A DNA stretch of 64,000 nucleotides from Bacteroidetes bacterium 47-18 (lineage in GTDB: Bacteria; Bacteroidota; Bacteroidia; Chitinophagales; Chitinophagaceae), in assembly GCA_001897155.1 (NCBI GenBank), contig MKSF01000006.1:94696-158695 (forward strand). The letters are read 5' to 3'. Numbering within the stretch: position 1 is the first letter of the stretch; every line of letters starts with the position of its first letter. Made by a program: the position numbers and the translations under genes. The notes under the pieces were generated by a model that was given only the letters and a program-made list of their open reading frames with translations, was not told where the DNA came from and did no database searches. Shown here piece after piece: positions 6,190-34,447 of the stretch.

Positions 6190-6815
6190 TGCTATACTCC
6201 GGTCGGAATGACCTTTACTATTAATGGATTAACCCCACCGCTGTCATTTCGAGCCTAATGCAATGGAGCCGGGAAATCTCTGTTATGGTGGATTGGAATA
6301 CTCATTAGACGACCGCATTAACTTTTATGCTTCCATAGGCTCTCTTTCTCCTGCCAGGCTGAACCCGTTGAAGCCATTATAAACCACATTTCGACAAGCT
6401 CAATGTGACAGTCTCCCTTATTGTCATGCTGAGCCCGTCGAAGCATATACTGCTTCCCTTACGCTGCGCTCCGGTCGGAATGACCTTTAGGATTAACCCC
6501 GCCGCTGTCATTTCGAGCGTAATGCAATGGAGCCGAGAAATCTCTGTTATGCTGGATTGGAACACTCATTAGACGACCGCATTAACTTTTATGCTTCCAT
6601 AGGCTCTCTTTCTGCTGCCAGGCTGAGCCCGTCGAAGCCTTTTGGTTAAGCAGGTCATCGACACTTTCCGTTAGGTCCACACTTCGACAAGCTCAGTGTG
6701 ACAAGCGTGTTTTCCTCCTAAGTGTCATGCTGAGCCCGTCGAAGCCTTTTGGTTAAGCAGGTCATCAACACTTTCCGTTAGGTCCACACTTCGATAAGCT
6801 CTGTGTGACAAACAA
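6190..6815. repeat. Structured repeat array A: 2 copies of a ~175-bp composite element (left arm CGCTGCGCTCCGGTCGGAATGACC ... TGTCATTTCGAGC..AATGCAATGGAGCCG.GAAATCTC) plus several ~65-bp hairpin modules (CACATTTCGACAAGCTCAATGTGACA ... TGTCATGCTGAGCCCGTCGAAGC)
   Basis: Direct sequence comparison. 6198-6395 and 6468-6650 are >90% identical. The flanking hairpin arms are mutual reverse complements. No ORF support. Confidence 0.7.
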
Positions 6816-6979: not shown

Positions 6980-7636
6980 ATGCATGAGCTCATCAGAATA
7001 CTTTTTTTAGTCTTATTGACTTCCTGCGCCGGCAACCAGGGGCGTACACCAGTCTTGCCAATATTTGGCGAAATAAAAGTAAATCCCGTAATCCATAACG
7101 GGAAACAAAGCATAGATACAGTGTACCACACTATTGGTCCGTTTGCTTTCCTGAACCAGTTCAATGATACGGTCGATGACAATACATTAAAGCATAAGGT
7201 ATTTATAATCAGTTGTTTTCATTCCACATTTCAGACTAAAACAGATACCTTACTGGAAGTAACGCTGGATAGTGTCCATCGTATACTGGGTAACGAGCCT
7301 GATTTCTATATTATTTCCCAAACCATCGACCCGGCATTTGATACTCCTGACATCTTACGTAAGTATTGTGAAAATAAAAACATCACAGGGAAAAACCGGT
7401 ACTATCTGACAGGACAAAGCGCTGACAGTATTTACAGGTTTTTAAGGTATAAGTATTTCCTCCTTGCAGAACGGGATACTACCAATATGGAAAACGGCGG
7501 GTTCATTCATTCCGATAAAATAGTGCTCATTGACAGGCAACAAAGGATCAGGGGTTATTATGACGGTACAGATATAAAGCATGTAGGCCAGCTCATCAAC
7601 GATGCAAAGACCTTACTGCAGGGGGATACTTTATAA
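6980..7636 (+). CDS. Hypothetical lipoprotein
   Basis: Signal peptide plus lipobox (LLTSCAGN). Sandwiched between repeat arrays A and B. AT-rich. Confidence 0.45.
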   Translation: MHELIRILFLVLLTSCAGNQGRTPVLPIFGEIKVNPVIHNGKQSIDTVYHTIGPFAFLNQFNDTVDDNTLKHKVFIISCFHSTFQTKTDTLLEVTLDSVHRILGNEPDFYIISQTIDPAFDTPDILRKYCENKNITGKNRYYLTGQSADSIYRFLRYKYFLLAERDTTNMENGGFIHSDKIVLIDRQQRIRGYYDGTDIKHVGQLINDAKTLLQGDTL

Positions 7637-7719: not shown

Positions 7720-7912
7720 GCCCGGCTGAGCCTGCCGGGATTATTAAAGATCACACTTCGACAAGCTCTGTGTGACAAACAACCCTGGCGTCAGGCTAAG
7801 CCTGTCGAAGCCTTTTGGTCAGGCAGGTTATTGAAACTTTACAACAGGTCCACACTTCCAACACGCTCTGTGTGACTAACAACCCTGGTGTCAGGCTGAG
7901 CCTGTCGAAGCC
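7720..7912. repeat. Structured repeat array B: two ~65-bp hairpin modules (CACACTTCGACAAGCTCTGTGTGACAAACAACCCTGG.GTCAGGCTGAGCCTGTCGAAGCC)
   Basis: Two near-identical copies with palindromic arms. Same module family as arrays A and C. Confidence 0.6.
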
Positions 7913-8102
7913 CTTATACCGCTGATGGAGCAATGCAGACATCCATCCCCCTGGCAATACACATTTCTTTGTCTGCATAAGCCGTTAAAATTTCCCTTTT
8001 TCATCTAATTTTGGTGCAAAACTGAAGTTGTGGCTTTCTTATCCATCACTATCTAAAAGTCGCAAACCGTTAGCAGCAATACTTCTCAAAAGCACGATCT
8101 AA

Positions 8103-9203
8103 ATGGAAGACAATTTAAAGTCGTTTGAAAAACAAATAAAGAAAACTCACAAATTTGGATTCACTCCAAAATATGAAGCTAAATTCCACACGCATCTTAC
8201 CGAAAAGGCTTTTATTCCAATTGCCCAACAGGCTTTTGAAAAATTAAACTGGGAAATAGTATATATTGACGAAACTAAAGTTGAAGCTAAACGAGGTACG
8301 GAAAACTGGGGGTTTCCCGGTTATACATATACCGAACTTATACAAGTAACATTTGAATATGGAAACGTTAAGGTATATAGCGAATCTATAAAAAGCTCCT
8401 TTTGGGATAATGGAATGAATTCTAAAAGAGTGCAGCTTTTTATCTTGGTATTTCAGCAAATTGAAAGCTCTTACGACAACGATTCTATAAAAAAATTAGA
8501 GATCGAGCAGGAGAAAAAAAACAACTGGGATAATTATGAAATTCCGGCAGCATTGCCCTTACCTGAAAAAGTAAGAAAACCTTTGTTTTTTATTCCAATT
8601 TTGGGAATGACTATATTGTCAATTGTATTAGGACTTATTCTGGCTAAAATTTCTATTCACGGGAAATACGTAATTTTTCTTTTTGAAATTTTAGTTGCTA
8701 TAATCTTAACCTTTGTACTTAAATATTTAATTAAGCTCTCTAATTATACTAATTTCAATAATCTGTTTTACCTGCTGCTTGCATCAATATTTGTTACCTA
8801 TTTTTCCAGTCAATATATACAATATGAACTCATTTTAAGAGAAAATGATTTGGATAGAATAGGCTTTGCCGCATATTTAAAAATCAGGCTAGAATATGGG
8901 TTAACAATAAAAACCTTAAAAACAGGCTGGATCGGGCTGATTATCAGTTGGATATTGCAACTGGGGTTCACTTCCCTTATTGGATATATAAGATTAGCAA
9001 GAATTACAATTGTATACCAGATCAAGCGGGTGCCACCGGAGGTGTCCGACTTTGCCTATTATCATTTTCTGAAAGGGAAAGATGAGTATGAGGTTAGAAA
9101 TCAATTGGCAAAATTCGGCTGGATAGAAGAACAACACCAAAACGAGGTTTTTGAATCATTAGGAGCCCACCAGGATGCCGTTGAAATGAATCGCTCAGCA
9201 TAA
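8103..9203 (+). CDS. Hypothetical integral membrane protein (very AT-rich gene)
   Basis: 366 aa. Soluble N-terminal ~160 aa, then multiple hydrophobic helices (FFIPILGMTILSIVLGLILA, VIFLFEILVAIILTFVL, ...). No recognisable family. Confidence 0.45.
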   Translation: MEDNLKSFEKQIKKTHKFGFTPKYEAKFHTHLTEKAFIPIAQQAFEKLNWEIVYIDETKVEAKRGTENWGFPGYTYTELIQVTFEYGNVKVYSESIKSSFWDNGMNSKRVQLFILVFQQIESSYDNDSIKKLEIEQEKKNNWDNYEIPAALPLPEKVRKPLFFIPILGMTILSIVLGLILAKISIHGKYVIFLFEILVAIILTFVLKYLIKLSNYTNFNNLFYLLLASIFVTYFSSQYIQYELILRENDLDRIGFAAYLKIRLEYGLTIKTLKTGWIGLIISWILQLGFTSLIGYIRLARITIVYQIKRVPPEVSDFAYYHFLKGKDEYEVRNQLAKFGWIEEQHQNEVFESLGAHQDAVEMNRSA

Positions 9204-14404: not shown

Positions 14405-16065
14405 AAAATACCCTTCGACAGGCTCAGGGTGACACCTTCTCTTTATTGTCAGGCTGAGCCCCGTCGAAGCCCTTGTATAAACCACATTTCGACAAGCTCA
14501 ATGTGACACAACAGGCTCAATGTGACATCGATATTCTTGTCATGCTGAGCCTGTCGAAGCATACCTATATATTACGCCTGTTTTTAGAAAGGTCCGGTAA
14601 CTTATACCACTCATTACGGATGATAGCCTCTTTCTTTTTCCGACTCCATCCCTTCACCTGCTTCTCAAAAGCAATGGCTTGATTCACATCAGTGAACTGT
14701 TGTTGGAAAACAAGTATTACCGGGCGTCTTTTGAATGTATAGCATTTGGGATCGGTACCCTCATTATGCTCAGCAATTCTCTTTTCCAGGTTATTCGTAA
14801 TTCCGGTGTAATAGGAGTTATCAGCACATTGAACAATGTATACATAGTAATATTTCATGGTATTATAAAGTTAAGGGTTCAATTTTGTTATCAGGTAAAT
14901 CCCGGCGATTAGTGTCCATGTCAGGCTGAGGTCTGCTGAAACGTTGTAAACCACATTTCGACAGGCTCAATGTGACACAATGAACTGCATGTAACAATCA
15001 CCATCATTGTAAGGTTGTGCTTGTCGAAGCAGGATTGTGGTGGTGGGTGGACACACACCACGGATGATTACCCTTCGACAGGCTCAGGGTAACACTTATT
15101 CTTTGTTTGTAAGGCCGAGCACTGTCGAAGCCCTTATATAAACCACATTTCGACAAGCTCAATGTGACACAACAGGCTCAAGGTGACATCGCTATTCTTG
15201 TCCTGCTGAGCCTGTCGAAGCATATACTTCTTTCCTTACACTGCACTTCTTTCGGAATAACTTTTTGCTACTTAATGGATTATACGTCCTGCTGTCATTT
15301 CGAGCGGAATGCAATGAAGCATAGAAATCCCTGTTGGAGTGGATGGTATAGCATATTCACCCTTCGACAGGATCAAGGTTACACTTACTCTTTGTTGTCG
15401 GGTTGAACACCGTTGAAGCCCTTGCGACAAGCTCAATGTGACACAACAGGCTCAAGGTGACAATCATTATCATTGTCATGCTGAGCCTGTCGAAGCATAT
15501 AACTTCTTTCCTTACACTGCGCTTCCTGCAGAATGACTTTTGCTACGTCCTGCTGTCATTTCGGGCGGAATGCAATGAAGCCTAGAAATCCCTGTTGGGG
15601 TGGATGGTATAGCATATTCACCCTTCGGCAGGCTCAGGGTGACACTTATTCTTTGTTTGTCAGGCTGAGCACAGTCGAAGCCCTTGTATAAACCACATTT
15701 CGGCAAGCTCAGGGTGACACCTACTCTTTGTTGTTAGGCTGCCTCCATTAAAGCCCTTTTATAAACCACATTTCGACAAGCTCAATGTGACACAACAGGC
15801 TCAAGGTGACATCGCTATTCTTGTCATGCTGAGCCTGTCGAAGCATATCACCTTACCCTTCGACAGGCTCAGGGTGACACTTATTCTTTGTTTGTCAGGC
15901 TGAGCACTGCCGAAGCCCTTGTATAAACCACATTTCGACAAGCTCAACGTGACACAACAGGCTCAATGTGACATCGATATTCTTGTCATGCTGAGCCTGT
16001 CGAAGCATATAATCTTACCCTTCGGCAAACTCAGGGTGACACAACAAAGTTCAATGCGACAAATA
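14405..16065. repeat. Structured repeat array C (~1.7 kb): about 20 hairpin modules (CTTCGACAGGCTCAGGGTGACA / TGTCATGCTGAGCCTGTCGAAGC family) and 2 composite TGTCATTTCGAGCGGAATGCAATGAAGC.TAGAAATCCC elements. A GIY-YIG gene is embedded in it.
   Basis: Dense tandem or interleaved copies visible by eye. Arms are reverse complements. Spurious short ORFs only. Confidence 0.75.
14565..14858 (-). CDS. GIY-YIG nuclease family protein (small, ~97 aa, UPF0213/YhbQ-like)
   Basis: MKYYYVYIVQCADNSYYTGITNNLEKRIAEHNEG...FEKQVKGWSRKKK matches the GIY-(10-11)-YIG..R..EH..E core. AT-rich gene embedded in repeat array C. Confidence 0.75.
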   Translation of the reverse strand: MKYYYVYIVQCADNSYYTGITNNLEKRIAEHNEGTDPKCYTFKRRPVILVFQQQFTDVNQAIAFEKQVKGWSRKKKEAIIRNEWYKLPDLSKNRRNI

Positions 16066-24210: not shown

Positions 24211-27200
24211 CTATTCAATATTCTTCAAAGCGTCCACCAGGCCTTTAAAGTTTTCATTGATGCCGGATAGCTGCACCAGGACCTGGGCGGTCTTATCATC
24301 ACCGCCCAGCCCGGCAAACTGGTTGTTCTTCCTGAATGTGGTAACAATATGCTTATAGCGCTCCTGCTCTTCGGGAGTGGCTATATGCATAATATGCCTG
24401 AGCTTGAGCAGATTGGCTTCCGCATCGGTGGTCAGCGTCTGCGCTTCGGCTTCATAGCTGGCAATGATCAGGTTCAAAAGCTCCTGCTCATTCATCAGGG
24501 GCACTATTTTCACCACCATCCTGTTCATGCTCCTGTACGAGCCCTGCAGCTTGAAGGCCGGCTCCGTACGGAACGCGTCATTCATCCCTGCGCTGGCTAT
24601 ATATAAATCGTTGACCTGCAAAACCACTTTCCTGACATACATTACATTTCGCAATACAACTATGGCATCGTCCACCTCCGCCCCGGTATAGGCAGCTTCC
24701 AGCTCCGGACGCAAATCCTCGTGCCGCTCCACATAGTCCACAAGCCTGTAAAAGTCTTTCATGCTCTTATGCCCTATCACCTGCAAATAACGGTTTTCGT
24801 TCATGGCATTTTCTACCAGGCTCAGGTCAAACAGGTGCCTGCTCTCCCCTGCCACATCACCCAGGTTATACACATCGGAACGGTTGGCCAGCATATCGGG
24901 GATCTTAAAGAGACTGCCGCTTTCGGTATAAGGATTGCCTGCCATCACCACACAGAAGCGTTTGCCCCGCAGGTCGTAGGTTTTGCTTACGCCTTCAAAG
25001 ATGCCGTCTATCTTACGCTGCCCGTCCGCCAGCGATATGAACTGCTGCAGGAATTCCGGGCTGCAATGCTGGATATCGTCCACATACAGCATCACGTTAT
25101 CAGCCATTTCAAAAGCAAGGTTCAGCTTCTCCAGCTCGACCCTGGCCCCCGAAGTTGTTGCTTCGGCAGGATCAATGCTGGTGATACGATGCCCGATAGT
25201 GGGACCGTTTATTTTTACAAAATGCAATCCCATCGTAGCGGACAGGTACTCCATCAGGGTGGTTTTACCATAACCCGGCGGCGAGATCAGCAGCAGCATC
25301 CCCATTCTCGCGGTACGCTTATCATCACCTACCGTACCCAATTGTTTGGCAAGGTTGGCGCCAATCATCGGGAAATATACTTCATTGATAAGCCTATTCC
25401 GCATAAAGGAGCTAAGCACCTTGGGCTGCATTTCCCTTATCTTCAGACGCTGCTCATAAGCGGCTACCAGGCTGCGTTTGGTAGCCTGGAAATCCTCGTA
25501 CAAAGGCACTGTTACCTGCCGGAAATGTGTCAGCTCTTCCATAAACTCATGATAACGGATGATATAGCCCTGCTCCGTTATGGTGGCATGATTGCCTTTC
25601 AGCCCGGTCAGCACCGTACTTTCGGCAGCAATATGCTCTTTGTAGCTGTCAGCCCCGAACAATACCAGGCAGGTAGCCTCATCTATATATGCCAGGTACG
25701 GCTCCGCGTTTTCCAGGGTCATGACATAGGCTTCCACCCAGTCCTGTATAATATAGAAACGCTCTATCAGGCTGTAAGATTCATTTTGAATATCCTGACG
25801 GAATACCTCTTCCTGGTGCTGCTGCTGCAGATGATGAATAAAATCTTTCTTTAGCTGCAATGCGGCGCTGCTGCAGGTAAAATAAGCCGGATCTTTCAGC
25901 TCATCCATCAGGTATGCTGCCATAGCTTCTACGGTAGCAGGAGGCAAATGATTATGTACCAAGGTAATATCCTGCACCAATACCCTGAAGGCCTGCGTAT
26001 CCTGGTACGCTGCTTGAAACAGCCGCCTGATCTTGTGAGCAGACTGTATCAGTTGTTCCAGCTTTTGCAACTGCTGCCCGGTCAATTGCTTCCAGAACAG
26101 TTGCGCCTGTACCCGGACAGCAACCGGGACCCTGAGAATACCCAGGCTGTCATCCAGCTTTATCAATGCGTCCGTAATAGCCACGGCATCCGCATTGTGC
26201 ACGCCTTTCACATAACCGCCGGCATAGTCCTGGTCTATCAGGCTGTCAATATATGCCGCAATATTCAGATCTCTTTTTTTGATATACTCCTGAAATGCCC
26301 GGAATGCCAGATAAGCACCTCTATATACTGCCGGGTTCTCCGAAATATAATCCTGGTCCCAGACGGCAATATGTTTCCGGAAAATACTCTCATCAACGGG
26401 CTGGTAAAAATTGGTGCCCATCAGATGATACATCAGGCGGTCGTTATGCTTTACGATCGTCAGTGCCAGCTCCTGCTTATTGACCGCAAATTTATACGGC
26501 CCCAGGGCAATGATATGATGCCCGTCCACAAACAGCTCATTTTTATCCTGCAGGGCCCTGATGGTATTTTCGCGGGCCAGCTTCAGGCTGTTCATCAGGT
26601 TTTCCGCCTTACCCACATCGCCCAGATCCTGCAGTTCCTGAGATAAGCTCCTGACCTTCTCTATCATCAGGTCACCGGCAAAAAAGCTGTATATCTCCTC
26701 ATTGGTGCCCAGCGTCAATGCTTTGCTCTCTATATTTTTCAGCACACGCAGGCCGATCTGCTCCAGGTTGCCGGTACGCTTGTTGATCTGCGCTACCAGC
26801 ATTTCCTTTTTGCCGTTGAATGCTTTTATAACCTCGTCCCGCTTGTCGGCAATCTTCAGGATAAAATCATCAAAGTCGGCAAACTTACTTTCCAGCTCCT
26901 CGATATGCACGCTGATCTTAGTGTAGTAGCTGTCGCATTTTTCTACCGAATCGGACAGATCCAGGAAGTTGACGATACTTTGCTCCAGTAAGGTGAGCTG
27001 CGCATGGAATTCCCCTACCGCCTCACCAGATCTCAGGCTGTTGATCCTGCGTGTCAGCGATGCCCTTACCTCATTCAAAGATGCGAACAGCACCGAAATA
27101 TTTTCAATGATCTTTGTGGTCTGCGTGGTATCTTCTATCTTAAGGCTGTTCAGTATATCTATCAGCAGCTCCAGTTGCCCGGCTATATCCATGCAGGCTT

Positions 27201-29040
27201 TTTCAATAGCCTGTGCATCTATCACTTTGGCAACACGCTCTATCGCCTGTCGCTGCTCGGCAATGTGCGCTTCATAAGGCTGCAAAGCATTGTCCTGCAA
27301 TAAGAACGTTACCGTTTCCTGCGACAACTGCCTATTGAATGCCTGTACCTGGTCCAGCATTTCACTGACTGCATCCTGGTCAATATACCGGACCTGCTGC
27401 AATTCAATAATACCACCCTGCGTAATACGAACCGTATTCAGTTGCTGCACCAGCTCATCCACCGTAGCATATTCTGCGTTCCGTATCTCCTGGTCCAGCG
27501 CCGCCACCTGAGCGCGTTTTTGTACCAGCTGCTCCACGGCAGACTGACGCTGTGCCTGCACTTTGGCAAATTCATCAATAGCCGTTTCGGCAATGGTCCC
27601 GATCTGCTTCAATGGTTCAGCAATACCATAAGTATCGCCGTTATTGATCCAGAAATAGCTGTCCAGAATATCTTTGGACAGCCTGGCAATATCCTCGTAC
27701 AGACCTTCATAGCTGTCTTCTTTCTTCAGCAACTGCAGGATCTCATACCCCTCCGACATCGCGCTGACGATATCTTTATTACCTATCTTGTACAATACAT
27801 TATCTTTCATCGCCTCATTTTCCACCAATGCGGCGGTATAAGGCGTCTGCCAGATCTGTACCTGGTGATGACGCACCGCTTCCTTTTCCGAACGGAAATA
27901 GATCAGCCTGCCATCTTTGAATATGGTAAAGCCATTGCAGATAATAGGCGTATTGACCTGCTGCTGTATCACATTGTACGACATCAGCACATAAGTATTG
28001 CTGTGCTTCTGGTAATATACATACAGGTAGTCCTCGCCATTCGGAGCCGCAACAGTACGCATATATTCCAGGTGGTCCATGCCGTTCTCAAAGAGCTTAT
28101 ACTCGCCATTCTGCAAATAGTATCCATTGGAGAATATCACTCCCTGCTGGTCGGGCAACAGGATACCGCTGTCCAGCAGGCTCGGGATATTATGCACCTC
28201 CCTGGTCCGAACATTGTATATAAACGCCCTGAAATCCTCCTGGTAAGGCTTTATTCTGACAGCAATGAGATTGCCCAGGTCCGCATAGTAATACTGCGCA
28301 TCATCCAGTTGCTGATCTTTGTTGGCAACCGGCTCAGAATAAATGCCCAGCCCCGTATCCGTATTGTCTTCGATCTTAAAGGTAATATCACCGCCGATAG
28401 CTTCTATATACACCTTATCCAGGATAGAGATATGCGGATGCAGGCCCAGCCTCCTGTCCTCCAGGGAGGTTCTTGTGAAATCAAAGCTGTACTGCTTTGC
28501 CTGCCTGACCTCATGAATGCTCCTGTCATCTATATATTTTAGCTGCTTACCATCTATATACCATTTAAACGCCTTCCTGTCCTCTACATTTTTAGAGCTC
28601 TGGAAGATCATATAGAGATAATGCTCCGTCCTGTAGAATTTGGAAAAGAAAGACTCCCGGTAATACCTGTACAGGTTTTTGAAATCCGTTACGAATTGCG
28701 CATCCGTTATCAGGTCAAGACTTACAGGCTCAAAATGATTGTCCGCAAACCTGTAGATGCTGAACACATCTCCCAGCTCTATTTCTTCGCGCAGTCCGAA
28801 GTGGACATTATAACCGAAAATACAGTATTCACCAAAGGCAATGATACCGCGGGCCACACCGTTATGTTCGGTAGTGATACGCTGATTGGCTATCAATGCA
28901 AACTGTTCCGTATTGAAAATTTCTTTCCTGCCTTCATTCAGCGCTGCCAGGCGCTCGCTTAAAATCACACTTTGCTCCTGTAACCTGTTGCGTATGATCT
29001 CATACGTCCCCGTATCTAAAGTAACTTTATTTTGTGGCAT
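24211..29040 (-). CDS. Giant (1609 aa) uncharacterised protein: N-terminal beta-rich domain, central ~500-aa coiled coil, C-terminal-third AAA+ ATPase of the MoxR/dynein-like (AAA_5) type
   Basis: Walker A GMLLLISPPGYGKTTL. Walker B NVMLYVDDIQ. Sensor-1/Arg-finger region CVVMAGNPYTESGSLFKIPDMLANRSDVY is comparable to ATQNP...P.ALLDRF of MoxR/midasin AAA_5. Long heptad-rich Q/E/L/K segment. Single uninterrupted ORF. Confidence 0.7.
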   Translation of the reverse strand: MPQNKVTLDTGTYEIIRNRLQEQSVILSERLAALNEGRKEIFNTEQFALIANQRITTEHNGVARGIIAFGEYCIFGYNVHFGLREEIELGDVFSIYRFADNHFEPVSLDLITDAQFVTDFKNLYRYYRESFFSKFYRTEHYLYMIFQSSKNVEDRKAFKWYIDGKQLKYIDDRSIHEVRQAKQYSFDFTRTSLEDRRLGLHPHISILDKVYIEAIGGDITFKIEDNTDTGLGIYSEPVANKDQQLDDAQYYYADLGNLIAVRIKPYQEDFRAFIYNVRTREVHNIPSLLDSGILLPDQQGVIFSNGYYLQNGEYKLFENGMDHLEYMRTVAAPNGEDYLYVYYQKHSNTYVLMSYNVIQQQVNTPIICNGFTIFKDGRLIYFRSEKEAVRHHQVQIWQTPYTAALVENEAMKDNVLYKIGNKDIVSAMSEGYEILQLLKKEDSYEGLYEDIARLSKDILDSYFWINNGDTYGIAEPLKQIGTIAETAIDEFAKVQAQRQSAVEQLVQKRAQVAALDQEIRNAEYATVDELVQQLNTVRITQGGIIELQQVRYIDQDAVSEMLDQVQAFNRQLSQETVTFLLQDNALQPYEAHIAEQRQAIERVAKVIDAQAIEKACMDIAGQLELLIDILNSLKIEDTTQTTKIIENISVLFASLNEVRASLTRRINSLRSGEAVGEFHAQLTLLEQSIVNFLDLSDSVEKCDSYYTKISVHIEELESKFADFDDFILKIADKRDEVIKAFNGKKEMLVAQINKRTGNLEQIGLRVLKNIESKALTLGTNEEIYSFFAGDLMIEKVRSLSQELQDLGDVGKAENLMNSLKLARENTIRALQDKNELFVDGHHIIALGPYKFAVNKQELALTIVKHNDRLMYHLMGTNFYQPVDESIFRKHIAVWDQDYISENPAVYRGAYLAFRAFQEYIKKRDLNIAAYIDSLIDQDYAGGYVKGVHNADAVAITDALIKLDDSLGILRVPVAVRVQAQLFWKQLTGQQLQKLEQLIQSAHKIRRLFQAAYQDTQAFRVLVQDITLVHNHLPPATVEAMAAYLMDELKDPAYFTCSSAALQLKKDFIHHLQQQHQEEVFRQDIQNESYSLIERFYIIQDWVEAYVMTLENAEPYLAYIDEATCLVLFGADSYKEHIAAESTVLTGLKGNHATITEQGYIIRYHEFMEELTHFRQVTVPLYEDFQATKRSLVAAYEQRLKIREMQPKVLSSFMRNRLINEVYFPMIGANLAKQLGTVGDDKRTARMGMLLLISPPGYGKTTLMEYLSATMGLHFVKINGPTIGHRITSIDPAEATTSGARVELEKLNLAFEMADNVMLYVDDIQHCSPEFLQQFISLADGQRKIDGIFEGVSKTYDLRGKRFCVVMAGNPYTESGSLFKIPDMLANRSDVYNLGDVAGESRHLFDLSLVENAMNENRYLQVIGHKSMKDFYRLVDYVERHEDLRPELEAAYTGAEVDDAIVVLRNVMYVRKVVLQVNDLYIASAGMNDAFRTEPAFKLQGSYRSMNRMVVKIVPLMNEQELLNLIIASYEAEAQTLTTDAEANLLKLRHIMHIATPEEQERYKHIVTTFRKNNQFAGLGGDDKTAQVLVQLSGINENFKGLVDALKNIE

Positions 29041-29084
29041 AAGCTGTTGTTTGTTTTTTTACTTTCCAAAAACCGTCTTAATAT

Positions 29085-30935
29085 TCAAGATAACACTTCT
29101 TTTTATAGGATTTAGGAGATTTCTCCATTGCGCTACGCTACAGTCGAAATGACAAGTAATACATCTGGCGTAAGAGCGAATCAGTAACAGACCACCCTAT
29201 GTCATTTCGAGCGAAGTGAAACGGAGTCGGGAAATCTCCTTGCATTTCCAACCAAAAGCTGAAACTTCTGCCTCTACCTAGTCCAGAGACTTTCCATTGC
29301 GCTACGCTACAGTCGAAATGACAAACGGCATGGCTACAGTAAGAAGCGAACCAATAGCACACCTCTTATGTCATTTCGAGCGGAGTGAAACGGAGTCGAG
29401 AAATCTCCTTGCATTTCCAACCAAAAGCTGAAACTTCTGCCTCTACCTAGTCCAGAGACTTTCCATTGCGCTACGCTACAGTCGAAATGACAAGTAGCAT
29501 GTTTAGAGTGAGAAGCGAACCAACAGCCCCCTTATGTCATTTCGAGCGAAGTGAAACGGAGTCGAGAAATCTCCTACATTTCCAACCAAAAGCTGCATCA
29601 CCTGAGCAAGCTAAATACATCATTCATCACTTCATCATTAAAGAATTTCCATTCACTATTCACATTATCAATTAATGTATTCTTCTTGGCTCTGCTCCAT
29701 TTTTTTAGCTGTTTTTCCCTCTCAATAGCAAGTGATATATTTTCAAATACCTCATAATACACCAGCAAAACACAATTGTATCTATCTGAAAAACTATTTA
29801 CAATTAAATGCTGCTCATGTTCATACAATCTTCGTTTCAGATCATTCGTTACCCCTATATACAGAACAGTTTTTGCCTTATTTGTCAATATATATAGAAA
29901 GTATGATTGCATGGTCGAGTTTTTTAATTTACAACCTACCTCTCCTGAATGGTCTTTGAGATTTCTCCATTCCGCTACGCTACAGTCGAAATGACAAGTA
30001 GCATGTTTAGAGTGAGAAGCGAACCAACAGCACACCTCTTATGTCATTTCGAGCGGAGTGAAACGGGGTCGAGAAATCTCCTTGCATTTCCGACCAAACA
30101 CTGACCTTCTGATCTTACCTGGTTTAGAGATTGCCCCATTTCGCTATACTACAGTCGAAATGACAGAGTAACACCTGGGGCAAGAACGAATCAGCAGCAG
30201 ACTCACCCTATGTCATTTCGAGCGGAGTGAAACGGAGTCGAGAAATCTCCTACATTTCCAACCAAAAGCTGAAACTTCTGCCCTATATAGTCCAGAGATT
30301 TCTTCATTCCACTACGCTGCAGTCGAAATGACAGAGTAGCACCTGGGGTAAGAACGAATCCTCACCCTATGTCATTTCGAGCGAAGTGAAACGGAGTCGA
30401 GAAATCACCTTGCATTTCCAACCAAAAGCTGAAACTTCTGCCTCTATCTAGTCCAGAGATTTCTCCATTCCGCTACGCTACAGTCGAAATGACAAGTAGC
30501 ATGTTTAGAGTGAGAAGCGAACCAATAGCCCCCTTATGTCATTTCGAGCGAAGTGAAACGGAGTCGAGAAATCTCTTTGTATTTCCAACCAAACACTGCA
30601 CTTCTAACCTACATAATCTAGAGATTCCTCCATTTCGCTACGCTACAGTCGAAATGACAAGTAGCATGTTTAGAGTGAGAAGCGAACCAATAGTAGCCCC
30701 CTTATGTCATTTCGAGCAAAGTGAAACGGAGTCGAGAAATCTCCTTGCATTTCCAACCAAAAGCTGAAACTTCTGCCTCTATCTAGTCCAGAGATTTCTC
30801 CATTAAGCTACGCTGCAGTCGAAATGACAAATAGTACATTCTGGTGTAAGAACAAATCAGTAGCAGACTCACCCTATGTCATTTCGAGCAAAGTGAAACG
30901 GAGCTGAGAAGTTTATTATTACCTGTGCTTTAAGC
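29085..30935. repeat. Structured repeat array D: about 9 tandem ~168-bp composite units (GGAGATTTCTCCATTGCGCTACGCTACAGTCGAAATGACAAG - ~40 nt variable loop - TTATGTCATTTCGAGCGAAGTGAAACGGAGTCGAGAAATCTCC - linker TTGCATTTCCAACCAAAAGCTGAAACTTCTGCCTCTACCTAGTCCAGAGAC), interrupted by a GIY-YIG gene
   Basis: Core TGTCATTTCGAGC recurs at ~29208, 29369, 29535, 30040, 30210, 30370, 30535, 30705 and 30880. The unit ends (GGAGATTTCTC / GAGAAATCTCC; CAGTCGAAATGACA / TGTCATTTCGAG) are reverse complements, giving a long imperfect hairpin. Confidence 0.8.
29598..29912 (-). CDS. GIY-YIG nuclease family protein (small, ~104 aa)
   Basis: MQSYFLYILTNKAKTVLYIGVTNDLKRRLYEHEQ...REKQLKKWSRAKK has the GIY-YIG core. 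The longer ORF (to 30035) reads through a repeat unit, so the start is set at the Met preceding the domain. AT-rich. Inserted at a repeat-unit boundary. Confidence 0.7.
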   Translation of the reverse strand: MQSYFLYILTNKAKTVLYIGVTNDLKRRLYEHEQHLIVNSFSDRYNCVLLVYYEVFENISLAIEREKQLKKWSRAKKNTLIDNVNSEWKFFNDEVMNDVFSLLR

Positions 30936-30979
30936 ATGCTCTGCTAAAATGATGATCTTCCAATTAAGAGCGCACACCT

Positions 30980-33022
30980 CTACCCCAGCTTCCTGTTTGA
31001 CCAGCCCAGGTTGCTGACCATATTCATCAGGTTCATAATGAACGGACGGTCTTCGTCTGAGCTTTGCTGCTGCATCTTTAAGAGGATACCGGATATGGTC
31101 AGGTTCTTCAGATCGTTGGTGCTGACATTATATTTCTCAGCAAAATCCCTGATCTTATCCATCAGATCGCCGTTATTGGTACCATCTCCTATCAATGCCT
31201 GCTTGATATGCGTAGCATGCTCGCTTTCATTGATGAGCCTGTCAAATCCTTTAGCATTGGAAATCTGGTTCACAATATTCTGGAAGAACATACTTTCACC
31301 ACCTACAATATCTATTTTCGCTGTCTTCATCGCTTCACCCAGCACCTCAGCCTGCGCATCTGCAATATCTTTCTGGATGCGTATCTGCGCTAATGCGATG
31401 TCCTTGTCCTTCTGTACCAGTATCTTGAACTCTTCGTGCTCTTTACCCACACCATCCAGCTTTTTCATAGCTTCCGCTTTCTCTTCGATACCTTTGGCTT
31501 CCGCCAGCGCTTTCTCTCTTAAGATATCGGCTTCCATCATACCCTCTTTGCGTTTGGCGTCTGCCATTTTCTCTACAATAGTAGCCTCTACTATACCCTG
31601 GCGCTCTTCTGCAGCCGCTTTTGCCAGCATCACCTCTGCCTCGGACAGACCGATGGTCGCTTCTTCACGGGCCTGGGCCTCTGCCAGTATCTTACGGGCT
31701 TCCGCCTGCTTGGCTGCCGCTTCTTTACGGGCCTCAGCATCTATCAGCATCTGCCTGGCTTTCTCTTCTGCTGCTCTTTTCTCAGCTTCCGCCGCTTTCA
31801 CGGTATGGATCAGCTTTTCTTCCGCTGCCCTTGACGCTTCGGTAATACCTACCGTTTTGCTTCTTTCCACTTCACGGAATGCTTCTACGTCCTTAATGCT
31901 TTGCTGCTCTTCCACCACGCCTTTTTCCAGCTTCACACGCTCCCTGATGACGTCCTGTATGTTCTTACGCTCTACCTCTACCGTTTTCTCTTTCTCTATC
32001 TGTGCCAGGGTCACGATCTTTTCACGCTCCGTTACTTCCAGCATCCTGTCTTTTTCCACACGCTCCGTTTCCACGGCATCTGTCCTGAGCTTACTCTTCT
32101 CCGCTATGATGATCTGGCGCAGCTTGTTCTCTTGCTGGATAGCCAGCTGCTCTTCCGTTTTGATCTTTACGGTCTGGGCTTTGAGCCTTTCCTCTTCCCG
32201 CACTTTTACGATCTCTGCTTCTTCACGCGCCTTGATATTATCAATTTCACGCTTTTGCTTTTCTTCTTTCTCTGCCATCTGGCGCTCCAGCTCCAGGATA
32301 GCTTCCCGTGCTTCCACATTCTGCTTTTTGATCACTTTCTCTTCTTCCCTGCGGATCAGGTTCGCTTTGATATTTTGTGCCGCGGTCAGCTCCGTGATTT
32401 TCTTGATACCTTCCGAATCCAGGATATTTTCCGGGCTCAGGTAGCGCAGCTCCGTCTGTTCCAGGTAGTCAATGGCACAGTCATCCAGGATATAGCCGTT
32501 CAGGTCCGTACCGATCACGTTCAATATCTCGTCCCGGAATTCACGACGCGCCTCGTACAGCTCCGTGAAGTCGAATTTCTTACCGGCCGTTTTCAGCGCC
32601 TCGGAGAATTTAGCTTCAAACAGGTGCGTCAGCGTAGAGACATCACTGGCCCGCTCACAACCTATCACCTGCGCCACATTCAGCACATCGTCCACATTTT
32701 TATTGACACGCACAAAGAACGCCACTTTGATATCCGCACGGATATTATCCCTACAGATCAGGCCGTCATGCTCCATGCGGTCTATCTGCAGCTTTTTGAC
32801 GGAGATATCCATGATCTCCATCTTATGAAGAATGGGAATGACATACATCCCTTTGTTAAAGGCCACCTTGCTGCCACCCACACCGGTCCTTACAATGGCC
32901 TTGCCCTGCGGTATCTTCTTATAAAAAGTAGCGAAGGCAAATAAAACAATAAGCAATATAAACACCACACCGCCAATCGTCATCAGGGTTAAACCGCCCA
33001 GGTTATCTAAAAATGCTCCCAT
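30980..33022 (-). CDS. Flotillin family protein (SPFH/band-7 domain plus long E/K/A-rich coiled coil), YqiK-like
   Basis: N-terminal TM helix, then SPFH domain (GKAIVRTGVGGSKV...VIPILHKMEIMDISVKKLQ...), then ~350 aa EA-rich coiled coil. 680 aa. Confidence 0.85.
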   Translation of the reverse strand: MGAFLDNLGGLTLMTIGGVVFILLIVLFAFATFYKKIPQGKAIVRTGVGGSKVAFNKGMYVIPILHKMEIMDISVKKLQIDRMEHDGLICRDNIRADIKVAFFVRVNKNVDDVLNVAQVIGCERASDVSTLTHLFEAKFSEALKTAGKKFDFTELYEARREFRDEILNVIGTDLNGYILDDCAIDYLEQTELRYLSPENILDSEGIKKITELTAAQNIKANLIRREEEKVIKKQNVEAREAILELERQMAEKEEKQKREIDNIKAREEAEIVKVREEERLKAQTVKIKTEEQLAIQQENKLRQIIIAEKSKLRTDAVETERVEKDRMLEVTEREKIVTLAQIEKEKTVEVERKNIQDVIRERVKLEKGVVEEQQSIKDVEAFREVERSKTVGITEASRAAEEKLIHTVKAAEAEKRAAEEKARQMLIDAEARKEAAAKQAEARKILAEAQAREEATIGLSEAEVMLAKAAAEERQGIVEATIVEKMADAKRKEGMMEADILREKALAEAKGIEEKAEAMKKLDGVGKEHEEFKILVQKDKDIALAQIRIQKDIADAQAEVLGEAMKTAKIDIVGGESMFFQNIVNQISNAKGFDRLINESEHATHIKQALIGDGTNNGDLMDKIRDFAEKYNVSTNDLKNLTISGILLKMQQQSSDEDRPFIMNLMNMVSNLGWSNRKLG

Positions 33023-33067
33023 AAGTTAAAAAGATTGTTTAAAATGGTTAAATGATATTTTAGTATT

Positions 33068-33727
33068 TCAGTCATTCAATACGTTATGGATATTGATATC
33101 CGGCTCCACCAGGTAATATCTTCCGCTATCCGCATCGCTCATCAGCGTGACTTCCGCGCCGTACGGGATAGCCCCGCCGCTTTTGCTTTTCACGAGCACC
33201 CTGATCACATCATTGAGGATGACCACTTCCGCATATCCCAGCTTATCTCCCGATATGGCCGATTTCATCCGGGCGGTCCTGCCGATGAGCTCATGCTGCT
33301 CTTCTCCGTTATATCCCATTGATCTGTATATCCTGATTAAAGGCCGTGTTGCCAGCCGGGTTAAAAAATAAGCGAGGATGAAGACAGGTATCAGTATCAA
33401 TCCTGATTTCCAGCCCCAGCTCCCTATATTCCAGATCATGGAGGAAGCCAGGGTAAACATCCATGCAATGAACTTAAAAGTGCTCAATACTACCATTACA
33501 GGCACTTTTCCCACGTTGATAAACGCCAGCGCCCTGGAGAAGAAAGAGGGCCCTTCCACTCCTCCCTGGGCATCCACATCCACTCCTGCCTCCAGGTCCA
33601 TATCCAGGTCACCCAGGAAATCTCCCGAAATAAAGGTCAGCAGCCAGTAAATGGCAGACAGGCTTACCAGCACTGTCATGATCGCATTCGGCAGCGGATG
33701 AAAAAAGTAATTTAAGATGTCAGCCAT
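33068..33727 (-). CDS. YqiJ-like / NfeD-type inner-membrane protein (DUF1449-like), flotillin partner
   Basis: Multi-TM N-terminal part plus a C-terminal soluble beta-rich segment (KLGYAEVVILNDVIRVLVKSKSG..GAEVTLMSD). Immediately upstream of flotillin, as in E. coli yqiJK. Confidence 0.55.
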   Translation of the reverse strand: MADILNYFFHPLPNAIMTVLVSLSAIYWLLTFISGDFLGDLDMDLEAGVDVDAQGGVEGPSFFSRALAFINVGKVPVMVVLSTFKFIAWMFTLASSMIWNIGSWGWKSGLILIPVFILAYFLTRLATRPLIRIYRSMGYNGEEQHELIGRTARMKSAISGDKLGYAEVVILNDVIRVLVKSKSGGAIPYGAEVTLMSDADSGRYYLVEPDINIHNVLND

Positions 33728-33748
33728 AGTATTGATAATTTTAAGATA

Positions 33749-34447
33749 TTACATGCCCAGCTTTTGCTTTAAGGCCGCCAGCTCTTTGTCCACCGACAGG
33801 CTATCATCTTTCAATATCCTGTCGATCTCGCTTTTGCTGTCCTGCTTTTCATGGGCGATCTCGCCATATGCCCTAGCCAGGGCTTCCTGGTCATCGGCTT
33901 TCTCTTTCATCCGTTCCAGCATCACGATAGTACTGTCACTGTCAATCTGGGCTATTTGCTTATTGACCTGCTGGGTGGCGGCGCTTACCTTCACCCGTGC
34001 GCGCAATGTCTTAAGCTCTTTTTCCCATTTGGCGAGGTTCTCCTGCAGCACGCGGATATTCTTCTGCATCTCTTCCACGGTATGCTCATGCATCACCGCC
34101 TGCTGCTCCAGGTCCAGGGCATCCTCGGCATATTGGCGCTTTAACGATAAGGCTTCCCGGGCGAGCTGCTCTGCCTTTCCTGCTTCCAGTTCCCTGTGCT
34201 GTGCCTTTTGCAGTATCAGCACCGCCTTTTCACCGTATGCGTCAGACTGCTTGATGCACTGCTCCTGCTCGTTGCGGGTCCTGAGCGCCAGGGCCTTTAT
34301 TTTTGCATACGCTTCGGTCGCATTGGCGAGGTCGTCCCTTAATTCGCGGAGACCCTGTTCCGTCATCCTGACCGGATCTTCCATCCGTTCGACAGCGGCA
34401 TGTATCTCCGCCTGTCCTATCCTGAAAAGCCTTTTAAAGATATTCAT
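33749..34447 (-). CDS. pspA: PspA/IM30 (Vipp1) family protein, ESCRT-III-like
   Basis: MNIFKRLFRIGQAEIHAAVERMEDPVRMTEQGLRELRDDL... is collinear with E. coli PspA ([40 protein letters not shown]). All-helical. 232 aa. Confidence 0.85.
   Translation of the reverse strand: MNIFKRLFRIGQAEIHAAVERMEDPVRMTEQGLRELRDDLANATEAYAKIKALALRTRNEQEQCIKQSDAYGEKAVLILQKAQHRELEAGKAEQLAREALSLKRQYAEDALDLEQQAVMHEHTVEEMQKNIRVLQENLAKWEKELKTLRARVKVSAATQQVNKQIAQIDSDSTIVMLERMKEKADDQEALARAYGEIAHEKQDSKSEIDRILKDDSLSVDKELAALKQKLGM

Follow-up and report, generated by a model that had tools for sequence, protein, structure and literature searches.

Between a flotillin gene and a gene for a DUF3686 AAA-ATPase, the 64,000-nucleotide stretch of contig MKSF01000006.1 of Bacteroidetes bacterium 47-18 (hereafter the window) carries a tandem array of hairpin repeats which encloses a small GIY-YIG nuclease gene, here named GIY1. 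Comparison with other loci shows that genes of this family are accompanied by a ~39-nt hairpin module in many bacterial phyla, and this association between gene and module is near certain. On balance the sequence comparisons make it probable that the link is a functional one, in which a minimal nuclease of ~100 amino acids (aa) is paired with cognate hairpin repeats in a manner similar to the repetitive extragenic palindromes (REPs) and their REP-associated tyrosine transposases (RAYTs).

Association of hairpin modules with GIY-YIG genes

Homologues of GIY1 were examined at 80 loci from different species, with the remainder of each 20-kb locus serving as an internal control. These loci span Bacteroidota, Clostridia, Alpha-, Gamma- and Deltaproteobacteria, Chloroflexota, Omnitrophota, Zixibacteria, Calditrichota, Patescibacteria and others, a range well beyond the family of Bacteroidota alone that had been supposed in a preliminary description of the window. 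Within 600 bp of the gene the strict motif GTCA[CT]N3-4GAG occurs 2.13 times per kb compared to 0.17 per kb elsewhere, while a relaxed form of the motif reaches 5.8 per kb within 250 bp compared to 0.29 per kb at distances of more than 600 bp, an enrichment of about 20-fold. The latter control density is approximately background, as the chance expectation is estimated at ~0.24 per kb. A motif lies within 250 bp of the gene in 71 of the 80 loci. Stem closure by exact complement was identified for 295 of the 430 motifs near genes (65 loci), with nine in the control, and clusters of two or more closed hairpins were found 69 times within 300 bp of a GIY-YIG gene and 32 times in the other ~1.08 Mb. 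The preliminary description had proposed tests for enrichment of the repeats near GIY-YIG genes and for paralogues elsewhere that are flanked by them; both were found, the latter also within the window, where a second paralogue (GIY2) lies in a module cluster of its own.

Tandem arrays with a period of 40-500 adjoin 21 of the 80 genes compared to one of 114 control segments, an example being a Lewinellaceae genome with a gene-adjacent array of period 164/321. The commonest layout is that of the window, namely TGTC-hairpin-CTC, gene, GAG-hairpin-GACA, which has the TGTC heads facing away from the gene and is present in 26 loci with the opposite layout present in 10, and the distance from module to gene ranges from 3 to ~200 nt.

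Relatives encoded on viral contigs are more distant (29 in 2.9 million contigs), and modules were detected with four of 27 of these. The low number of modules by viral relatives indicates that the association is a property of a cellular subfamily and not of all GIY-YIG genes. A phage origin of GIY1 is not supported by these counts. Clustered GIY-YIG paralogues were also observed, with four within 9 kb in Aquiflexum sp. (L016, 9980-18706) and two adjacent to each other in Pedobacter frigidisoli (L048, 9995-10932).

Sequence and structure of the module

From the cross-locus comparison, the module has the form TGTC / A-Y-NNN / GA / apical mini-hairpin / GA / N'N'N'-R-T / CTC, this being a hairpin with a variable 5-bp stem and the asymmetric flanks TGTC and CTC. 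Each arm of the repeat units in the window is one such hairpin. The R module of the window reads TGTC/ATTTC/GA/GCGAAGTGAAACGGAGTC/GA/GAAAT/CTC, and its L module, on the minus strand, reads TGTC/ATTTC/GA/CTGTAGCGTAGCGCAATG/GA/GAAAT/CTC.

Covariation was assessed with 73 distinct 26-nt modules, which were picked by the fixed letters GTC..GA..GA..C only with pairing ignored. In this set 91.2% of cells are standard-paired compared to 71.2 +/- 1.1 after shuffling, and the covariation score is 0.553 compared to 0.203, with none of 500 shuffles reaching the observed value in either case. All seven pairs vary on both sides, as is characteristic of a structure under selection. Shifting the partner by 1-3 columns as a control gave 15-59% pairing.

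The GA opposite the 5′ GA is present in 232 of the 295 closed modules (TC in 16), which produces a mismatch of tandem G.A. Of these modules, 226 carry the head TGTC and 44 carry CGTC, unlike the GT(A/G)G head of REPs. The apex is mostly a 2-bp stem with a GNA triloop (CCGCAGG, CCGAAGG, GCGCAGC, GCGAAGC), with apices of the form C-GNA-G found in 155 of the 295 modules and in 51 loci. DNA mini-hairpins of the types GCGNAGC and d(GNA) have been described as extraordinarily stable (PMC13037366, PMC3201870).

Dispersed modules show no bias in orientation relative to genes, the counts of sense and antisense modules being 44 and 36 downstream of gene ends and 39 and 37 upstream of gene starts. Together with the alternation of orientation within arrays, this points to an element which acts at the level of DNA rather than as a strand-specific RNA. 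Tandem G.A pairs occur in RNA too, and with the covarying stems and the fold of a whole repeat unit as RNA (z = -4.8) they would suit an array that is transcribed, its modules being structured RNA with a processing, stability or guide-like role alongside the nuclease, in parallel to HEARO/IscB. Such a role is very unlikely, given that both module orientations occur within arrays with no bias relative to neighbouring genes, that a GNA triloop at the apex is a stable motif of the DNA type, and that a protein of ~100 aa is too small to include an RNA-binding domain. There is also no Rfam match, the whole window giving no family at gathering score and the array, at E <= 1, giving chance matches to plant microRNA hairpins only, far below threshold.

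Pairing of stem type and protein

Proteins accompanied by the same stem type are 54.7% identical on average, compared to 51.3% for other pairs, a difference that was matched by none of 2000 permutations in which phylogeny was uncontrolled. Among the 20 protein pairs of highest similarity, 19 have one stem type in common, including cross-phylum pairs such as Chloroflexota with Syntrophobacteraceae and Chloroflexota with Zixibacteria. Within the window, GIY1 and GIY2 are accompanied by different module types.

Anatomy of the array

The array consists of nine units of ~168 bp (29116-30915) and nearly fills the intergenic region between the flotillin and DUF3686 genes. Tandem Repeats Finder detected a first block at 29116-29595 (period 169, 2.9 copies) and a second at 29958-30910 (period 168, 5.7 copies; also period 335, 2.8 copies). 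A 27-nt core, TGTCATTTCGAGCRRAGTGAAACGGAG, occurs nine times in the window, in the array only, where shuffles predict none. The left arms of the units have the form GAGATTTCTCC...CAGTCGAAATGACA, each ending in CAGTCGAAATGACA, and the right arms, which begin with TGTCATTTCGAGC, have the form TGTCATTTCGAGCG...GAGAAATCTC. A whole unit forms a long imperfect hairpin that is better than those of shuffled sequences (DNA z = -3.4, RNA z = -4.8), and the segments between the arms belong to two alternating related subtypes (compare the period of 335) and are not unique spacers.

The preliminary description had read this region as nine long palindromes in tandem, with loops that are sub-variants of each other and with a 104-aa GIY-YIG gene in place of one linker, all of which agrees with the present analysis; its choice of the 168-bp unit as basic element does not, as the cross-locus comparison identifies the ~39-nt module as the building block. 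The array thus comprises 18 modules in strictly alternating orientation. An alternative parsing is as doublets of the form TGTCA...CTCC, 46-nt linker, GAGA...TGACA with spacers of ~45 nt between them, and the GIY1 gene then occupies the linker of the doublet 29535-29996. Read on the strand of the gene, this doublet is TGTC-hairpin-CTC, gene, GAG-hairpin-GACA. The GIY1 open reading frame (ORF) is intact and ends with a stop codon 2 nt away from ...CCAACCAAAAGCTG, which is the left 21 nt of a normal linker. The G+C content of the gene is 30.8%, which suggests a foreign origin, compared to 48.2% for the window, with 44.9% for the array. The features of the array are as follows.

29116-30915, both orientations: whole array, 18 hairpin modules and one GIY-YIG gene (repeat finding, motif scans)
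29535-29996: gene-carrying doublet, made up of module (+) 29535-29573, 24 nt, gene (-), 45 nt, module (-) 29958-29996
29598-29912, minus strand: GIY1, stand-alone GIY-YIG catalytic domain, 104 aa (PF01541, E = 8.5e-18)
29200-29238, plus strand: R-type module 1, which reads TGTC/ATTTC/GA/GCGAAGTGAAACGGAGTC/GG/GAAAT/CTC
29369-29407, plus strand: R-type module 2
29535-29573, plus strand: R-type module 3, on the stop-codon side of GIY1
30042-30080, plus strand: R-type module 4
30211-30249, plus strand: R-type module 5
30370-30408, plus strand: R-type module 6
30537-30575, plus strand: R-type module 7
30705-30743, plus strand: R-type module 8
30877-30915, plus strand: R-type module 9, the terminal one, degenerate at its 3′ end (GAGAAGTTTA), common to the relative L087
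29116-29154, minus strand: L-type module 1
29286-29323, minus strand: L-type module 2, 3′ stem degenerate (GAAAGTCTC)
29455-29492, minus strand: L-type module 3, 3′ stem degenerate
29958-29996, minus strand: L-type module 4, on the start-codon side of GIY1
30127-30165, minus strand: L-type module 5
30295-30333, minus strand: L-type module 6
30456-30494, minus strand: L-type module 7
30621-30659, minus strand: L-type module 8
30791-30829, minus strand: L-type module 9
29239-29285, 29408-29454, 30081-30126, 30250-30294, 30409-30455, 30576-30620, 30744-30790: tail-to-tail linkers
29155-29199, 29324-29368, 29493-29534, 29997-30041, 30166-30210, 30334-30369, 30495-30536, 30660-30704, 30830-30876: head-to-head spacers

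The tail-to-tail linkers are ~46 nt in length and conserved (consensus TTGCATTTCCAACCAAAAGCTGAAACTTCTGCCTCTACCTAGTCCA), with seven copies and the gene at the eighth position (29574-29957). The head-to-head spacers are ~36-45 nt, and it is their two alternating subtypes that had been described as loops.

Palindromic repeats of ~39 nt with segments of ~45 nt between them recall a CRISPR array or another array with spacers. The repeats alternate in orientation, however, the 'spacer' subtypes recur and the neighbouring genes are not cas genes, on which grounds a CRISPR identity was rejected. As at least six metagenomes gave the locus in independent assemblies, an assembly artefact can be set aside with it, the probability of either being negligible.

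ORFs called mechanically were seen to run through the modules and to give peptides like CHFERSETESRNL, these being 29598-30035 on the minus strand and 29297-29431, 29466-29675 and 30489-30767 on the plus strand.

The GIY1 protein and its family

Both GIY1 (64.9 bits) and GIY2 (73.9 bits) match PF01541 (gathering cut-off 22.6) and no other family above cut-off; neither is an HUH/Y1 transposase, the enzyme that characterises RAYTs. Apart from a 100% identical protein recorded for Bacteroidetes bacterium 47-18, the nearest homologue of GIY1 has 60% identity. Alignment of 29 family members shows Y7, Y18, G20, R28, H32, E66 and N85 to be invariant, a set which, mapped to the residues of I-TevI, includes all the catalytic positions (the two Tyr of GIY/YIG, the Arg and the metal-binding Glu and Asn). 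The AlphaFold2 model of GIY1 is one compact domain with a predicted local distance difference test (pLDDT) score of 95.9. With Foldseek the best match is UPF0213 protein BH0048 (1ZG2; 22% identity in the structural alignment), followed by Slx1 and At-HIGLE and then by the UvrC N-terminal domain, while profile matches to PDB sequences were obtained for 1ZG2 (E = 4.3e-8) and 1YWL (E = 1.6e-6). The similarity to Slx1-type proteins is restricted to the nuclease domain, covering 71-81 aligned columns of chains with 249-298 residues. The stand-alone family is large, with 25,651 clusters at 50% identity (E <= 1e-3) in a library of 1.84 billion proteins.

Among characterised or structurally solved proteins, UPF0213/YhbQ (1ZG2 BH0048, 1YWL EF2693) resembles GIY1 in being a single GIY-YIG domain of ~100 aa with detectable homology, and within the GIY-YIG superfamily GIY1 is placed in this UPF0213-like stand-alone group. 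It is only distantly related, however, and no repeat association or substrate was found for it in the open-access literature. Slx1 and HIGLE are the nearest functionally characterised folds and cleave DNA that is branched or structured instead of a long specific sequence. Both differ from GIY1 in being eukaryotic repair enzymes without a repeat association, and Slx1 possesses in addition a C-terminal RING/PHD-type zinc finger and a partner, Slx4, where GIY1 is too short for a second domain. The homing endonucleases of the I-TevI and Seg kind share with GIY1 the catalytic domain, selfish-gene behaviour and a low-G+C 'foreign' look. Unlike the I-TevI type, GIY1 (104 aa) lacks a C-terminal DNA-binding domain, has no intron or phage context, and is flanked by hairpins instead of a target gene.

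Identity as a group I intron or homing endonuclease was rejected, as GIY1 is without a DNA-binding domain, Rfam gave no intron and the site is intergenic between flotillin and DUF3686. No known defence system was assigned to GIY1 either, PADLOC and PHROGs giving weak matches only.

In many members of the family the called protein has 120-150 aa and is matched from residue 28-50 onwards, and a 145-aa extended call of GIY1 also exists; such N-terminal extensions probably arise because the ORFs read through modules. Public records label GIY1 (104 aa) and its closest homologue as 'excinuclease ABC subunit C', which is a misnomer as the name derives from the shared GIY-YIG domain.

Turnover among relatives

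The flotillin and DUF3686 AAA-ATPase genes flanking the array are syntenic across Chitinophagaceae. At 83-87% flotillin identity, in L089/L090, L091 and Terrimonas rubra (L092), the junction between them is empty, being 69-146 bp in length with zero modules. A closer relative (~90-94% nucleotide identity in the flanking genes, with ~90-93% at L087) has at L087 an 821-bp junction without a GIY-YIG gene, consisting of three ~245-bp units that have the two module types of the window and a third type, and its homology to the window breaks exactly at 29069 and 30876. In the same relative, the junction from ABC-F to metallo-beta-lactamase (L242) has three ~118-bp units with other module types and is without GIY2, homology to the window breaking at 14407 and 16119. 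The arrays are thus not fixed across relatives, and none of the three tests proposed in the preliminary description speaks against its interpretation.

At 8100-8780 of L087, the head-to-head spacer is ~12 nt compared to ~45 nt in the window, so that spacer length is unconstrained, and the third module type, TGTCATCTCGACCGGAACGCAGTGAAGCGGAGAGATCTC, is interleaved. In assemblies that are 97-100% identical to the window, some units are swapped for the sequence of a sister unit; these swaps resemble gene conversion, and assembly chimeras are also possible.

Modules without the gene

In the reverse direction, a metagenome module scan with TGTCATTTCGASYGWAGYG gave at least 80 loci, altogether 535 kb. 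Nearly all of the TGTCATTTCGASYGWAGYG matches listed are genuine modules, the canonical form being TTGTCATTTCGAGCGAAGCGAGAAATCT. Dispersed modules, solo or as doublets, are present at these metagenome loci, and three or four clusters are present in the 64-kb window; it may be that modules can exist without the gene. That the genes nearly always have modules while the modules are seldom near a gene is the pattern of REPs and RAYTs.

The same excess of modules over genes (79 of the 80 module loci listed are without the gene) would also fit the main alternative, a GIY-YIG gene that is a homing-type parasite of hairpin repeats and would settle and persist by preference within module doublets or arrays, the repeats spreading by other means or being host elements. 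In the window the gene takes exactly the place of one linker, of which the left 21 nt are retained, its G+C content is lower than that of the array, the close relative has gene-less arrays at both junctions, and there are weak matches to homing-endonuclease models. Nevertheless, we regard this origin as unlikely. GIY1 is the catalytic domain alone without a homing-type DNA-binding domain, scoring 20.7 bits with TIGR01453 against a cut-off of 56.05, and no fixed insertion site is evident as the distance between module and gene is variable and the linkers differ between taxa. In addition, the covariation of protein clade and stem type across phyla fits recognition of the module itself, and relatives are rare in viral contigs.

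A further possibility is that the modules belong to the host as cis-elements, for example sites that bind proteins or have a topological role, or punctuation of transcription or replication, as has been suggested for some REPs; they would multiply by ordinary tandem duplication and have the gene as an unrelated neighbour. Whole 168-bp units are indeed duplicated together with their spacers, the differences between strains resemble recombination between units, and many modules are far from any GIY-YIG gene. However, the 20- to 30-fold enrichment next to one specific small gene family in many phyla is difficult to account for unless the two are functionally linked, the stem type matches the protein clade, and the more distant GIY-YIG relatives of viral contigs are mostly without modules, all of which makes this explanation improbable, more so than a homing-type parasite.

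Comparison with REP/RAYT and other repeat systems

For comparison, the definition of REPs, bacterial interspersed mosaic elements (BIMEs) and RAYTs by Nunvar et al. (2010; PMC2817692) was used. The REP/RAYT analogy proposed in the preliminary description holds for architecture. In both systems the repeats are short imperfect palindromes with a conserved unpaired head and are much more numerous than the genes, the gene lies between two inverted repeats (29535-29573 on the plus strand and 29958-29996 on the minus strand in the window; 26 of the 80 loci), and gene and repeats covary (phylogeny being uncontrolled in the permutations here). As with BIMEs, there are arrays of alternating orientation with two kinds of linker (the 18 modules of the window; arrays by 21 of the 80 genes), and inverted doublets can form long hairpins.

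The differences are in the enzyme, the repeat and the hosts. The enzyme here is a hydrolytic GIY-YIG nuclease and not an HUH/Y1 (IS200/IS605) transposase, for which reason covalent cut-and-transfer is unavailable. The head is TGTC where that of REPs is GT(A/G)G, and inside the module there are a tandem G.A and a GNA mini-hairpin. RAYTs are described in Proteobacteria, whereas the host range here is centred on Bacteroidota with many other phyla. The system of GIY-YIG gene and module is hence not a member of REP/RAYT, having an unrelated enzyme and another head.

The insertion sequences of the IS200/IS605 group likewise combine the recognition of subterminal DNA hairpins by a very small enzyme with a biology of single-stranded DNA, which for GIY1 would be by analogy; they differ in that their enzyme is of a different superfamily, while here the gene is single-copy with the repeats in arrays. 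Miniature inverted-repeat transposable elements are defined by terminal inverted repeats, a target-site duplication and a DDE transposase encoded elsewhere; for the doublets, the termini were observed to be inverted, TGTCA...TGACA. No description of an association between GIY-YIG genes and hairpin repeats was found in the open-access literature or in Rfam, where absence is not proof.

Proposed activity of the nuclease

GIY-YIG enzymes hydrolyse DNA without a covalent intermediate. If the REP/RAYT-like pairing is functional, the nuclease would recognise its cognate hairpin, whether extruded from single-stranded DNA or formed as the cruciform of a doublet, with the variable stem as the determinant of specificity, and would nick at the single-stranded flank of conserved sequence (TGTC or CTC) or close to it. 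Since GIY-YIG chemistry is hydrolytic, the duplication and dispersal of modules would then fall to repair or replication by the host, through gene conversion, template switching or unequal recombination. A tandem array could grow in this way around the gene, which would stay single-copy between two modules. We infer that the nuclease may thus both cleave and mobilise the modules. In its most general form, the proposal is that the stand-alone GIY-YIG family of ~100 aa provides the cognate enzymes of pan-bacterial DNA hairpin repeats, each reading the stem of its module in single-stranded DNA and nicking next to it, so that repeats spread and arrays grow hydrolytically with the help of host repair, as a second solution of the RAYT kind that evolved independently; this wider claim is a tentative one, to which we give somewhat less than even weight.

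Several observations weigh against the proposed pairing and its mobility. The 80 homologue loci are not phylogenetically independent, and repeats assembled from short reads may be chimeric. As GIY-YIG enzymes cannot carry out strand transfer, mobility of the modules would need host functions. Unit number is constant among the assemblies with 97-100% identity to the window, and no mobility is visible at the shortest timescale. Nearest-neighbour folding gives -2 to -3 kcal/mol for single modules of the window with shuffles as good, and the case for the short hairpin consequently rests on covariation across loci. Finally, the reverse link is weak, a GIY-YIG gene of the GIY1 family being present at one of the 80 module loci listed, from metagenome contigs that are short, where the gene may sit elsewhere in the same genomes.

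Were the link functional, a role would be provided for a very large family of uncharacterised mini-nucleases, and the combination of palindromic repeat and dedicated enzyme, known only from REP/RAYT, would have evolved at least twice with unrelated chemistries. Under the wider proposal the family would also yield very compact nucleases that discriminate by both structure and sequence; the covarying stem may act as a specificity code, and a hairpin-specific nuclease of 100 aa could be a useful tool. With regard to annotation, read-through of modules explains peptides such as CHFERSETESRNL, the extended GIY-YIG calls and the misnomers noted above, and module arrays explain intergenic hot spots that differ strongly among close relatives.

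Other module clusters and neighbouring genes in the window

The second paralogue and the remaining module clusters of the window are as follows.

14565-14858, minus strand: GIY2, 97 aa, 36% identical to GIY1 by BLASTP (PF01541, E = 1.3e-20)
14407-16041: module cluster around GIY2
6242-6810: third module cluster, without a GIY-YIG gene
7750-7916: small module cluster, across the SCO1/SenC gene (6980-7636) from the third cluster, without a GIY-YIG gene

The stems of the GIY2 cluster are ACATT/AATGT, ATGCT/AGCAT, ACCCT/AGGGT and AGGCT/AGCCC, with ATTTC/GAAAT also present. Nested elements occur in this cluster at 15474-15644 (and also at 15142-15340), where a TTTC-type unit (...GAATGAC, loop, TGTCATTTCGGGCGGAATGCAATGAAGCCTAGAAATCC) lies within the loop of another doublet; the arms of the outer doublet at 15474-15644 are TGTCATGCTGAGCCTGTCGAAGCATA and CCCTTCGGCAGGCTCAGGGTGACA. 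Doublet loops may hence be favoured points of insertion or recombination. A match of 25 aa to the GIY-YIG family, obtained by tblastn at 8114-8188 (E = 0.66), is probably due to chance.

The array lies within a string of genes (24211-34447) that is conserved in L001, L087 and L089-L092, encoding a helix-turn-helix (HTH) regulator, a YbjN/CesT-like protein, PspA/IM30, a YqiJ-like protein, flotillin and the ATPase, the last being a protein of 1609 aa with DUF3686, DUF7902 and AAA domains. This string has the appearance of a membrane-stress module.

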